DNA of 64,000 nt. Source: a bacterium. Lineage in GTDB: Bacteria > UBP18 > UBA7526. The notes beneath the pieces were generated by a model. That model was not told the origin of the DNA, searched no databases, and saw nothing but the letters and a program-made list of their open reading frames with translations. The DNA is taken from the NCBI GenBank assembly GCA_030615855.1, contig JAUWYL010000002.1, positions 1,526 through 65,525 of the forward strand. The letters are read 5' to 3'. The translations under genes and the position numbers were made by a program. This document shows, one piece after another, positions 11,346 to 32,095 of this stretch. Numbering within the stretch: position 1 is the first letter of the stretch; each line of letters begins with the position of its first letter.

Positions 11346-11437
11346 GGTTAACGGTTTACCCGTCCTTCACTTACGTTCAGGACTGTTTACCGTCTACCGT
11401 TTTTTCACCGTAAACCGTACACCGTTAACCGTAAACG
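11346..11437. repeat. GTTTAC/GTAAAC heptamer cassette
   Basis: ggtttacc-[gtcct..aggac hairpin]-gtttaccgtctaccgt...accgtaaaccgtacaccgttaaccgtaaac. Confidence 0.8.
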
Positions 11438-20000: not shown

Positions 20001-20105
20001 TCTTTACCTCCTTCGCTTCGCTTACTCGGTAGTTAACCGTTTACCCGCTCGGCTTTTAGCCTCGCTGTTTACCGTACACCGTAAACCGTTAACCGTAAAC
20101 TATGC
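20001..20105. repeat. GTTTAC/GTAAAC heptamer cassette
   Basis: gttaaccgtttacc-[hairpin]-gtttaccgtacaccgtaaaccgttaaccgtaaac; CTTCGCTTCGC motif merged with the dnaK RBS. Confidence 0.8.
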
Positions 20106-29265: not shown

Positions 29266-29387
29266 TGTTTACCGTTTACCAGTCCCGACAGCTGTCGGGA
29301 CTGTTTACCGTTTACGGTAAAAGATCGTACACCGTAAACCGTTTCAGCCAAAGGCTGATCCGCCTATGGCGGAAACCGTAAACCTTT
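29266..29387. repeat. GTTTAC/GTAAAC heptamer cassette with hairpins
   Basis: gtttaccgtttacc-GTCCCGACAGCTGTCGGGAC-gtttaccgtttacggt...accgtaaaccg-TCAGCCAAAGGCTGA-TCCGCCTATGGCGGA-accgtaaacc. Confidence 0.8.
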
Positions 29388-30800
29388 TTAGATGCTGAAA
29401 GCCAACTCCTTTCCCGCTTCCATAATCTTTTCTAACTTTCCTTCTTCGTCTGATTCAGCATAGATTCTAATGATGGGTTCTGTCCCCGAGGTGCGAAACA
29501 AGAGCCAGCTGTTATCCTTTAAAATAAACTTTATTCCGTCTAAAGCGTCTATCTGCCTTACTTCAATATCTGCCAATTCTTTTGGTGGATTTTTCTTTAA
29601 GGTAGAAATCAAGATGTCTCTTTTATCCAGAGGATACTCGCTATCGATCCTTTTATAGAGATAGGTGCCGAACTCTTTTGCCATCTCCTCTTGAATCTGA
29701 GCCAATGGTTTCTTCTTTAAGGCTAACATCTCGAGAAGTAACAGGCCAGATAAGAGGCCATCTCTATCCGGGACATGATTCTTAACCCCGATTCCTCCCG
29801 ACTCCTCTCCTCCGATCAGGATATCCTCTTCCAGCATTAATTCACAGATATATTTAAATCCTACCGGGGTCTTATAGATTTCTCTCTTATGTTTTTCGGC
29901 TATCTTATTTAGCAGAGAGGTAGTGGATATGGTCTTCACTATCCCTCCCGACCATCCCCTGCTCTCAATCAAATGAAGAGTAAGTAGAGAAAGAACCTGA
30001 TGGGGATTGACAAAGTTGCCTTCACTATCCATGACTCCTAACCGATCCCCATCCCCATCTGTGGCCAGTCCTAAATCTGCCTTCTCTTCCTTTATCTTAT
30101 CTATTAAGGCGCCTAAGTTCTGAGCAATGGGCTCGGGGTTCACTCCCCTGAAAGAGGGGTTCTCCTCGCCCCGAATAGTGATGACCTGACACTTCCCTTC
30201 TTTTAAGACCTGGGCAGTATAATCCTTTCCTGCACCATACATGGAATCAACAATCACTTTAAGCGACGCTTCTTTTATTAATTCCAAATTGACGAAGGAT
30301 TTCAGAAACTGGAGATAGGGCGGAGTAAAATCTATGGTCTGGATAAGTCCTTTCTTCTCTCCTTCCTCAAAATCCATCTCTTGCGGTTTATTCTTATACA
30401 AGAAACTCTCGATCTTCTTAGTTGTTGTATCATCTGCGCTTCCCGCATACTCTCCTTTGAACTTTATTCCATTATATTGAAAGGGGTTATGGCTGGCAGT
30501 AATCATTATCCCCCCAGCAGCCTTCCTTTCCTTTATGGCGAAGCAGACACAGGGAACGGGCTGAATCCTATCGCTTAAGATAACCCTTATTCCATTCCCG
30601 GCTAGGACAGAGGCTACAAGATGGGCATACTCCTTAGAGAGAAAACGAGCATCATATCCTATGACGATCTCCCTTTCTCCGATCTTCTCTCCTTTAAGAT
30701 AATCTGCCATGGCCTGAGAAACGATCTTAACATTCTCAAAGGTGAAATCCTCTGAGATCACCCCCCTCCAGCCATCAGTACCAAACTTTATTTTTCCCAT
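29388..30800 (-). CDS. Phosphoglucomutase/phosphomannomutase
   Basis: FGTDGWRG, TASHNP (active Ser), DGDGDR, GEESGG, RTSGTEP. Confidence 0.95.
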   Translation of the reverse strand: MGKIKFGTDGWRGVISEDFTFENVKIVSQAMADYLKGEKIGEREIVIGYDARFLSKEYAHLVASVLAGNGIRVILSDRIQPVPCVCFAIKERKAAGGIMITASHNPFQYNGIKFKGEYAGSADDTTTKKIESFLYKNKPQEMDFEEGEKKGLIQTIDFTPPYLQFLKSFVNLELIKEASLKVIVDSMYGAGKDYTAQVLKEGKCQVITIRGEENPSFRGVNPEPIAQNLGALIDKIKEEKADLGLATDGDGDRLGVMDSEGNFVNPHQVLSLLTLHLIESRGWSGGIVKTISTTSLLNKIAEKHKREIYKTPVGFKYICELMLEEDILIGGEESGGIGVKNHVPDRDGLLSGLLLLEMLALKKKPLAQIQEEMAKEFGTYLYKRIDSEYPLDKRDILISTLKKNPPKELADIEVRQIDALDGIKFILKDNSWLLFRTSGTEPIIRIYAESDEEGKLEKIMEAGKELAFSI

Positions 30801-30894
30801 CGTTTACCGTTTACCTGCTCCCCTGATTCATCGGGGTCGCTGTTTACCGTTTACGGTAAAAATACCGTACACCGTAAACCGTTAACCGTAAATC
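30801..30894. repeat. GTTTAC/GTAAAC heptamer cassette
   Basis: gtttaccgtttacc-[cccctgattcatcgggg]-gtttaccgtttacggt...accgtacaccgtaaaccgttaaccgtaaa. Confidence 0.8.
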
Positions 30895-31974
30895 TTATTC
30901 TGTGTATTTCTTTAGTTTTGGATTCTTGCCGAGTTTATGGACCAGTTCCTTTACTTCCTGGGCCCTATCTTTAGGGCAGATTAAGGTAGCATCTTCTGTT
31001 GAGATGATGATTAAATCTTTTATACCGATTGTTCCCACCATTCCTTTGCCACAGAGAATAATGGAATCTCTGGTATCTAAAGAAGAAACTTCTCCCTTGG
31101 TAATATTCCCTTCCTTATCTTTAGGCAGGATCCTTTCCAGGGCCTGCCAGTTCCCCACATCGTCCCAGAGATAATCTGCCTTCACCACCAGAGTATTCTT
31201 CGCCTTTTCCATTATACCATAATCTATGGATACTTTGTCCAATTTCTTATAGACTCTCTCAATTACTTTCTTCTCTTTTGAGGTGCCCAAGGCTTTTTGA
31301 ATTTCTAAAAGGCCTCTGTATAGTTTGGGCATATATTTCCTCATCGCTTCCAAAATGACAGAGGTTCTCCAGATAAACATCCCGCTATTCCAGAGGTACT
31401 TGCCACTCTTCATAAACTTCAATGCTTTTTTCCTATCTGGCTTTTCCGTAAACCTCCTCACTCTATGTACTAACCGTAAACCGTAAACCGTGAACCGTAA
31501 ACCCATCTCTATATACCCATATCCCGTCTCTGGCCTAGTGGGCATGATTCCCATGGTTACTAAACTATCTGTATCCTGGGCAGTCTTAATAGCCACTTTT
31601 AAGATCTTCAAAAACTTCCTCGGTTCACCAATGACATGATCTGCGGGTAAGACAACCATAACGCTATCTGGGTTTTCATTCTCTACTAATATCGCCCCCA
31701 GGCCAACCGCTGCTGCCGTATCTCGACCAAAGGGTTCAAAAACAATGTTCTTAGTTGGAATTTTGGGAATTTCGTTCTCGATTCTTGGCCCTAATCCCTT
31801 TCGAGCAATAATCAGAATATTCCTTGATTTAACCAAAGGACTTATTCTTTTTACCGTTTCATAGATCATGCTCCTCTTAGAAGCGATGGGCAAAAGCTGC
31901 TTCGGTGTTTTAATCCTTGACTTGGGCCAGAACCTTTCTCCCCTCCCCCCAGCAATAATGACTGCTTTAACCAT
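30895..31974 (-). CDS. manC: Mannose-1-phosphate guanylyltransferase
   Basis: AGGRGERFWPKSR, PKQLL, EPFGRDTA, PADH, ETGYGYIE, FTEKP, WNSGMF, SIDYGIME, WDDVG; in-frame repeat insert. Confidence 0.94.
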   Translation of the reverse strand: MVKAVIIAGGRGERFWPKSRIKTPKQLLPIASKRSMIYETVKRISPLVKSRNILIIARKGLGPRIENEIPKIPTKNIVFEPFGRDTAAAVGLGAILVENENPDSVMVVLPADHVIGEPRKFLKILKVAIKTAQDTDSLVTMGIMPTRPETGYGYIEMGLRFTVYGLRLVHRVRRFTEKPDRKKALKFMKSGKYLWNSGMFIWRTSVILEAMRKYMPKLYRGLLEIQKALGTSKEKKVIERVYKKLDKVSIDYGIMEKAKNTLVVKADYLWDDVGNWQALERILPKDKEGNITKGEVSSLDTRDSIILCGKGMVGTIGIKDLIIISTEDATLICPKDRAQEVKELVHKLGKNPKLKKYTE

Positions 31975-31976
31975 GC

Positions 31977-32090
31977 CACCCTCACTTCGTTCGGAAGTTT
32001 ACAGTTTACCCGCCCTTCGGGCTGTTTACCGTTAACCGTAAACCTTCTTTTACCACCGTAAACCGTACACCGTTAACCGTAAACCCCCTG
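31977..32090. repeat. GTTTAC/GTAAAC heptamer cassette
   Basis: CTCACTTCGTTCGG-gtttacagtttacc-[gcccttcgggc]-gtttaccgttaaccgtaaacc...accgtaaaccgtacaccgttaaccgtaaacc. Confidence 0.8.
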
Positions 32091-32095
32091 TTACA

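Follow-up and report, generated by a model that had tools for sequence, protein, structure and literature searches.

The window analysed here, a 64,000-nt stretch of DNA from a bacterium of the GTDB lineage UBP18 (contig JAUWYL010000002.1, assembly GCA_030615855.1), contains at 30895..31974 of the minus strand an intact open reading frame (ORF) that encodes a predicted mannose-1-phosphate guanylyltransferase (ManC) of 359 aa, and within this gene lies a short tandem array of heptanucleotides that is read through as protein. The ORF carries an NTP_transferase domain (PF00483, 2.5e-43) and a C-terminal ManC_GMP beta-helix (PF22640, 1e-19) in Pfam, and the Thermotoga maritima GDP-mannose pyrophosphorylase (GMP) of PDB entry 2x5s aligns with it end to end (residues 2-349, E 5.7e-77). 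The same entry is the best Foldseek match of the ManC model, with template modelling (TM) scores of 0.73/0.78. The domain content together with the full-length similarity in sequence and predicted fold identifies the product as a ManC/GMP of the non-phosphomannose isomerase type, and guanylyltransferase activity is predicted for it. The unit of the array belongs to the same family as the repeats of the intergenic cassettes on both sides of manC: the two-unit pattern ACCGTAAACCGTAA, with two or fewer mismatches allowed, was matched 24 times in the window, where 0.16 matches would be expected, and the matches include both spacers (30844-30891 and 32028-32082).

The array occupies 31469..31503 on the minus strand. 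By hand count its 35 nt consist, on the coding strand, of five units, GGTTTAC GGTTCAC GGTTTAC GGTTTAC GGTTAGT, and Tandem Repeats Finder (TRF) reports a period of 7 with 4.6 copies and 92% matches at 31472-31503. The self-match at period 7 is 0.66. These units specify residues G158-L168 (GLRFTVYGLRL) and two bases of V169, so that the peptide reads ETGYGYIE-M-GLRFTVYGLRL-VHRV-RRFTEKP. Alignments place the native 5' boundary of the variable segment at 31504..31524, encoding GYGYIE-M, and the native 3' boundary at 31460..31468, encoding (V)HRV (both on the minus strand). The VHRV residues are native, pairing with VHKV of T. maritima 2x5s, and the motif V[YH]xV is kept in all relatives; on the other side, the GYGYI columns are invariant in a 29-sequence alignment. 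The original prediction, made from the letters of the sequence, had described an array translated in frame inside ManC, of the same unit family as the flanking cassettes and located in a loop that is variable in this protein family, and ORF calling, Pfam, TRF and the pattern counts bear this out. Its description of five units between ETGYGYIE and RRFTEKP stands as to the five heptamers; its peptide had dropped one V, and it had extended the repeat-encoded part slightly too far, into the native VHRV. Its surface loop needs rewording too, since the model shows an ordered beta-hairpin at this segment and no floppy loop.

The AlphaFold2 model of the window's ManC, built on 29 homologues and having a mean predicted local distance difference test (pLDDT) score of 84, consists at this place of a strand (154-163), a turn (164-165, Y164-G165) and a second strand (166-176), with pLDDT of 86/77/87 for the three blocks. 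Glycines are found at 158 and 165 in the modelled hairpin. According to this model, the hairpin is ordered, and its distal half, including the tip, is what the array encodes. The segment from GYGYI to FxEKP varies from 15 to 42 aa across 120 homologues. It measures 19 aa in the window's ManC and is 4 aa shorter in T. maritima GMP; the 19-aa length is also found in the non-repetitive ManC of Syntrophaceae, Spirochaetes, Chloroflexota, Bacillota and others, and it follows that the array brings no net gain in length over this class. The array is not palindromic and has no stable RNA hairpin, the mRNA around it is not more structured than shuffled sequences (z +1.5; 184/200 shuffles fold at least as well), and no target duplication is visible at the ManC array. 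As a separate observation on the start of the array, the minus-strand reading AUG GGU UUA at 31497-31506 gives G_GGU_UUA, a -1 slippery heptamer in the correct phase, in this allele only. The -1 frame ends after ~13 codons, and the motif is probably a coincidence because relatives have C/T in place of the first G.

The relatives indicate what kind of site this is. The protein search returned 15 homologues at 78-89% identity, after which identity drops to 67% and 55%, and the loop DNA was read for ten relatives at 80-89% identity. In the alignment, close relatives are near-identical on either side of the hairpin, and their hairpin peptides fall in unrelated classes: GLRFTVYGLR / GSRFTVHGSR, GSPVRQFASSP, GSKVQSLKS, GSRVKGQGLR and NAKCKMQNVKFKIQNSK. 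All ten relatives (10/10) have a tandem array at the same site, starting one codon after E156 and ending in GT-NTAT/CAT. Six unit families were found among them, which include GGTTTAC/GGTTCAC, the octamer GTTCGCC(A/G), GTCCAAA, GGTCAAG and AATGCAA/AATTCAA. The units are GGTTCAC x4 in L106, GGTTTAC/GGTTAAC in L107 and L002, GGTTCAC/GGTTTAC in G003, the octamer AGTTCGCC x4 in G002 (a genome of the same genus as the window), GGTTCGCC x3-4 in G004, GTCCAAA in L109, GGTCAAG/GGTTAAG in L110, and AATGCAA/AATGTAA/AATTCAA x7 in L108, the last array being 21 nt longer. Since relatives carry differing 7- or 8-nt arrays at the same site, the site is old and its content turns over, and it does not represent a one-off insertion.

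Arrays are also present at the hairpin site in four more distant ManC lineages (48-55% identity) with up to 13.9 copies: CAAAATG x4.9 in L112 (55% identity), A-rich heptamers x7-8 at 4465-4524 of L113 from candidate division NPL-UPA2, AAATTCA/AAATGCA x5.7 in L114, and TCAGAAG x13.9 spanning 97 nt at 692-788 of L115, in which the segment from GYGYI to FxEKP reaches 42 aa. The ManC hairpin evidently tolerates large extensions such as those in L115 and L113. A 7-aa periodicity in the protein suggests further array-bearing ManC in P0021/22, P0037, P0054 and P0102. At L111, a repeat-poor locus at 67% identity that was checked for a decayed array, the segment is CT-rich, non-periodic and 20 aa long (best period 8, at 0.47). 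The peptide of the window's array is carried by no orthologue from a repeat-poor locus, and L111 has DSPSSLPASRLP at this place. As controls, ~95 ManC loci of other phyla, at 41-49% identity, reach a best self-match of <=0.52 at arbitrary periods, compared with 0.56-0.76 at period 7 or 8 for the array-bearing loci. The one exception among the controls is L101, from the complete 1.5-Mb genome G025, where the hairpin is encoded by GATAGTGTTAGTGTTGGTGATAGT with period 6 and a self-match of 0.58; in this lineage, too, repeats may be active at the ManC hairpin.

Three kinds of change can be read from the close alleles. Firstly, substitutions are shared among the units at constant length, as in G002, where AGTTCGCC occupies all four units, and in G004, where GGTTCGCC occupies three; likewise, L106 has GGTTCAC throughout, L107 has GGTTTAC, and the window has GGTTTAC with one GGTTCAC. 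Secondly, length changes keep the frame. The segment is 19 aa long in 12 of the 16 close alleles, 18 aa in P0005 and P0009, and 26 aa in P0007 and P0015 as well as in the partial P0118; the 26-aa form corresponds to +7 aa, i.e., three heptamers or one 21-nt step. Segment classes of 15 and 22 aa exist in more distant homologues. Thirdly, the unit family itself switches, with unrelated units in alleles that have 90-92% identity to each other outside the loop. All 16 close alleles are intact and in frame, as judged by a protein search that split ORFs would escape.

The ManC array is one of many in this genome. The window's assembly (G000; 1.375 Mb, 45 contigs, 44% GC) contains 718 non-overlapping arrays of at least three copies, 292 of them heptamers, 195 octamers and 99 decamers, and their unit families number in the dozens. 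A crude ORF call puts 405 of the 718 arrays between genes, 160 inside ORFs and 153 at ORF edges. The GGTTTAC family is the largest, with 35 arrays (at least three units within one mismatch), six of which are inside ORF calls, and TRF counts 20 arrays for the canonical unit AAACCGT. Copies of GGTTTAC inside ORFs have one orientation because the unit is stop-free on one strand only (complement ...CCG TAA...). Next in abundance is AATGCAA with 21 arrays, some members being in frame in AsnB-, DapF- and PurH-domain genes, and other units known from ManC relatives recur as well: GGTCAAG in three arrays (all in ORFs), GTCCAAA in two and GTT[TA]GCCA in two. Ten array host genes were checked, seven of them by Pfam, which assigned domains of Lnt, PurH (three arrays), AsnB (two arrays), Ddl, ProRS, DapF and CobD, and two further hosts resemble LeuRS and FolC by eye; given these domains, the arrays are inside conserved genes. 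The peptide modules LRFTVYG, NAKCKMQ, SRVKGQG and VQSPKSK are shared between proteins.

With regard to single host genes, three different in-frame arrays are present in each of C7:18285-19868 (PurH domains), C12:7409-8929 (Lnt domains) and C43:26227-28749 (LeuRS-like by eye). One of the Lnt arrays (CLRFTVYGLRFI) is within the Lnt N-terminal domain, in an apparent membrane-spanning stretch.

Mismatch repair domains were searched for in six genomes of the family (G000-G005). Neither MutS (MutS_V, PF00488) nor MutL (PF01119) was detected in these six, and both were detected in 11 of 14 control genomes. NucS was considered as an alternative mismatch repair enzyme and not accepted, as its matches were marginal (24-25 bits), partial (NucS_C) and in ORFs of 128-154 aa.

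We consider it reasonably probable that the array is a long-lived, frame-locked stretch of simple sequence, tolerated in a permissive hairpin of ManC, passively translated and changing by concerted evolution. It would then be one ~4.5-copy member of a large population of short arrays with 7- or 8-nt units in this lineage, filling an ordinary 19-aa segment at the tip of a solvent-tolerant hairpin and not recently inserted there, and the site would already have been repetitive before the genera of this family diverged. A substitution arising in one unit would spread to the others at constant length, by slippage or by conversion within the array, and the length changes that survive would be steps of three units (21 nt, or 7 aa), because any other change puts ManC out of frame. 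Occasionally the unit family would be switched altogether. Selection on ManC may act as a filter, under which the frame is kept, the unit has no stops in the coding orientation and the peptide is compatible with the hairpin; the repeat-encoded peptide itself probably has no function of its own. The missing detectable MutS and MutL would probably raise both slippage and recombination between diverged repeats.

Several observations weigh against this account. The unit families switch abruptly (GGTTTAC, GTTCGCCA, GTCCAAA, GGTCAAG and AATGCAA) among alleles with 85-92% identity outside the loop, and unrelated units are found even in pairs that are 90-92% identical there (P0009/P0013, P0009/P0015 and P0003/P0007). 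Arrays of 7-mers and 8-mers fill the same 35-36 nt, and the conversion of one into the other at equal length is impossible by single viable steps and fits replacement. In a maximum-likelihood phylogeny built from the protein with its loop masked, array types cluster no more than shuffled labels do. The AATGCAA/AATTCAA pair recurs in ManC loops of lineages that are only ~50% identical. Moreover, heptamer copy number in the genome is bimodal, with dips at 4.0 and 3.0-3.1 and a distinct mode at 4.3-4.7 (30-33 nt) in place of a geometric tail, and pure local slippage does not predict that separate intergenic loci share the order of their variant units. The ACCGTAA-family arrays at 11407-11434 and 32055-32082 both have the order TAA-TAC-TTA-TAA, those at 20071-20098 and 30864-30891 both have TAC-TAA-TTA-TAA, and variant-unit orders of the window's intergenic arrays recur on other contigs. 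It seems that whole arrays, not single units, are copied between loci. Lastly, the loss of mismatch repair is at most permissive, because MutS mainly handles loops of 1-4 nt and, to our knowledge, many bacteria without mismatch repair have no such arrays.

All but the last of these points favour a second account, in which an active or recombinational process would copy whole arrays of ~30-35 nt, i.e., four to five units, from other loci over existing arrays or permissive sites, so that the hairpin is repeatedly rewritten with whichever unit family is current, and we regard such ectopic overwriting as possible rather than probable. It is in keeping with this that the unit in the window's ManC is that of the most abundant family of its genome and that AATGCAA, the unit in the ManC of P0007, P0015 and P0118, is that of the second. 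Against it, the octamer GTTCGCC(A/G) has no second exact array in the G002 and G004 genomes, its ManC array being the sole exact one; a donor from the genomic pool is thus not supported for that type, which argues for inheritance in situ. Array types A-D share the start GG[TG]T[CT], as would be expected from, and fits, descent in situ, and no enzyme candidate for overwriting was identified. The ManC tree is star-like and weakly resolved: because just 2 of its 15 inner branches are well supported, the lack of clustering is suggestive only, and each array type may have had a single origin. In its strongest form, which we put forward tentatively, this lineage and others with a repetitive ManC hairpin might possess a process other than ordinary slippage, a length-preserving and template-directed overwriting that writes or rewrites, at fixed sites of which some are in essential genes, cassettes of ~30-35 nt in which a unit of 7 or 8 nt is present four to five times; the ManC hairpin would be a long-lived target of it, and the units would come from a pool shared across the genome and even across phyla, as for AATGCAA/AATTCAA.

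As an observation on the gene pair itself, ManC and the adjoining phosphomannomutase/phosphoglucomutase (PGM) gene (29387-31976 in the window, 9999-12607 in L001) have 86.8% DNA identity to the same-genus genome G002, in contrast to 92-94% for the adjoining glycosyltransferase and LepA blocks. The lower identity suggests allele exchange or faster evolution of the pair.

The original prediction had compared the array with Rickettsia palindromic elements (RPEs), which are palindromic, measure ~100-150 bp and add a segment to the host protein relative to its orthologues. A small mobile repeat inserted once in a permissive loop, and adding a peptide segment, would agree with the unit family shared with the flanking intergenic cassettes, with the in-frame position at a variable loop and, in the comparison with T. 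maritima GMP alone, with the 4 aa by which the segment is longer. We find such an entry into the gene unlikely: there is no gain in length over the common 19-aa class or over the 20 aa of the repeat-poor L111, the array has 35 nt where RPEs have more than 100, palindromy, RNA structure and a visible target duplication are absent, and the site is repetitive with other units in each of the close relatives read. The array is RPE-like only loosely, as a case of repeat DNA tolerated in a protein, and shows neither palindromy nor net insertion.

It is very unlikely, in our view, that gain or loss of 7 nt switches ManC by frameshifting, and with it the supply of GDP-mannose, on which a surface glycan or solute would depend. 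The array is inside an ORF and its unit length is not divisible by 3, ManC feeds glycosyltransferases of the same gene run, and heptanucleotide phase-variable tracts are known in Neisseria. They are also known in Haemophilus (PMC2651432). However, the ManC tract has just 4.6 imperfect copies, the distant alleles are all in frame like the 16 close ones (split ORFs would escape the protein search here too), and equivalent arrays lie in ProRS-, Ddl-, PurH- and DapF-domain genes and in the ORF that is LeuRS-like by eye, where on/off switching would be lethal. Most improbable of all is that selection on the protein favours a hairpin of 7-residue period (Gly-x6-Gly) with the DNA repeat as its by-product, for although many non-repetitive homologues have Gly at segment positions 1 and 8 (e.g., GNAFDTIG and GEELTDIG) and any heptamer array yields a 7-aa period automatically, the units are identical in nucleotides down to synonymous positions, octamer arrays (8-aa period) and K/N-rich arrays are equally accepted, and the same units occupy non-coding spacers.

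Compared with known systems, the array resembles each of several in part. Like it, RPEs are cases of selfish or neutral repeat DNA that is read in frame and accepted where a conserved protein is permissive, whereas the window's array is a direct tandem of 35 nt, unstructured and neutral in length. Phase-variable contingency loci of Haemophilus and Neisseria likewise place a non-triplet simple-sequence repeat inside a glycan-pathway gene; the ManC tract differs from them in being short and imperfect, in having no out-of-frame alleles among those seen and in having the same kind of arrays in essential genes. The repeats within ORFs of Borgs reportedly have unit lengths divisible by 3 and give disordered regions, unlike the 7- to 8-nt units of this lineage, which are read in all three phases, are frame-locked as a whole and lie in an ordered hairpin. 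The Borg report describes rapidly evolving perfect tandem repeats inside ORFs that give rise to new peptide segments (Schoelmerich et al. 2023, PMC9879509), a likeness to the window's ManC; the comparison with Borg repeats, like that with the TAACTGA repeats of Beggiatoa, is more remote.

The closest counterparts are arrays of about four heptamers. In Geobacter metallireducens, 'four tandem heptanucleotide repeat' elements (Gmet_H4##) with the units GGGACCG/GGACCGG are spread over 49 sites, both between and within genes (Aklujkar et al. 2009, PMC2700814). They represent one GC-rich unit family and were read as regulatory RNA or binding sites, and no analysis of their reading frame, protein position or turnover between relatives is reported there (PMC2700814). 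The lineage of the window differs in that its unit families, with units of 7, 8 and 10 nt, run to dozens, and in that relatives carry different units at one and the same site of a protein. Short tandemly repeated repetitive (STRR) sequences and GGGAATC-type heptamers of cyanobacteria and Xanthomonas/Nostoc prefer four units, lie near stop codons and form inverted pairs (Rehm et al. 2015, PMC4692102), features that the cassettes flanking manC resemble, though GGTTTAC is without G-tracts and many arrays of the window's genome are in frame in housekeeping enzymes. The direct 7-nt tandem, the preference for about four units and the many dispersed copies, mostly intergenic and some intragenic, are traits in common with STRR and Gmet_H4 elements. 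None of the reports on Geobacter, STRR/GGGAATC, Beggiatoa and Borg repeats describes one protein site at which relatives all keep an array but differ in its unit.

For decades, arrays of four heptamers have been on record from cyanobacteria, Xanthomonas and Geobacter, with no accepted account of their origin or function. ManC offers a clean natural experiment in this respect: one defined hairpin bears at least six unit families in relatives 10-20% apart and up to 14 units in lineages 50% apart, and the orthologues of other phyla, non-repetitive at the same length, complete it. Upkeep in situ as opposed to overwriting, what sets the length of four to five units, and how freely the sequence of a beta-hairpin tip can vary while the enzyme still works all become testable. 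It is also a caution to annotators and modellers of protein families that, in lineages of this kind, DNA repeats produce the hypervariable 'loops'.

The spacers on either side of manC have a common architecture. Downstream, the ManC-PGM spacer (30801..30894, minus strand; identified by pattern search and sequence) has an orthologous cassette in G002 and, read on the coding strand, consists of four GGTTTAC-type units directly past the ManC stop, inverted GGTAAAC units, a GC hairpin CCCCGATGAATCAGGGG, then GGTAAACGGTAAAC and the PGM start. The PGM gene itself (29388..30800, minus strand), assigned by ORF call, Pfam and synteny, lies downstream of manC as its partner, and this gene order is conserved. 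Upstream, the spacer at 31975..32095 (minus strand; pattern search and sequence) contains a GGTTTAC GGTTAAC GGTGTAC GGTTTAC array, a second short array, the hairpin GCCCGAAGGGC and GGTAAACTGTAAAC. Intergenic GGTTTAC arrays begin no more than a few bases from a stop codon, and past them come GGTAAAC units in inverted orientation and a GC hairpin. In the window and in L002, the unit inside manC is also the unit of the flanking spacer; spill-over from a neighbouring cassette was nonetheless rejected, as the flanks in L106 are of the ATTGTTC and GCGAC types and the flank in L001 is GGTTAAC/GGTTCAC with GTTCGCCA in the gene.

The region directly upstream of manC differs among relatives in gene content. 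A gene of family PF05635 (23S_rRNA_IVP / bAvd-like four-helix bundle) is found there in L107 (2452-2829) and L002 (9470-9865), where the window has only the 120-nt array/hairpin cassette (31975-32095). In L002 this gene is flanked by octamers of the CCGGATAA type and not by the ManC unit. PF05635 genes number 8-10 in each of the four best-covered of the six genomes G000-G005, four genomes of 0.8-1.4 Mb, and 2 and 4 in the other two.

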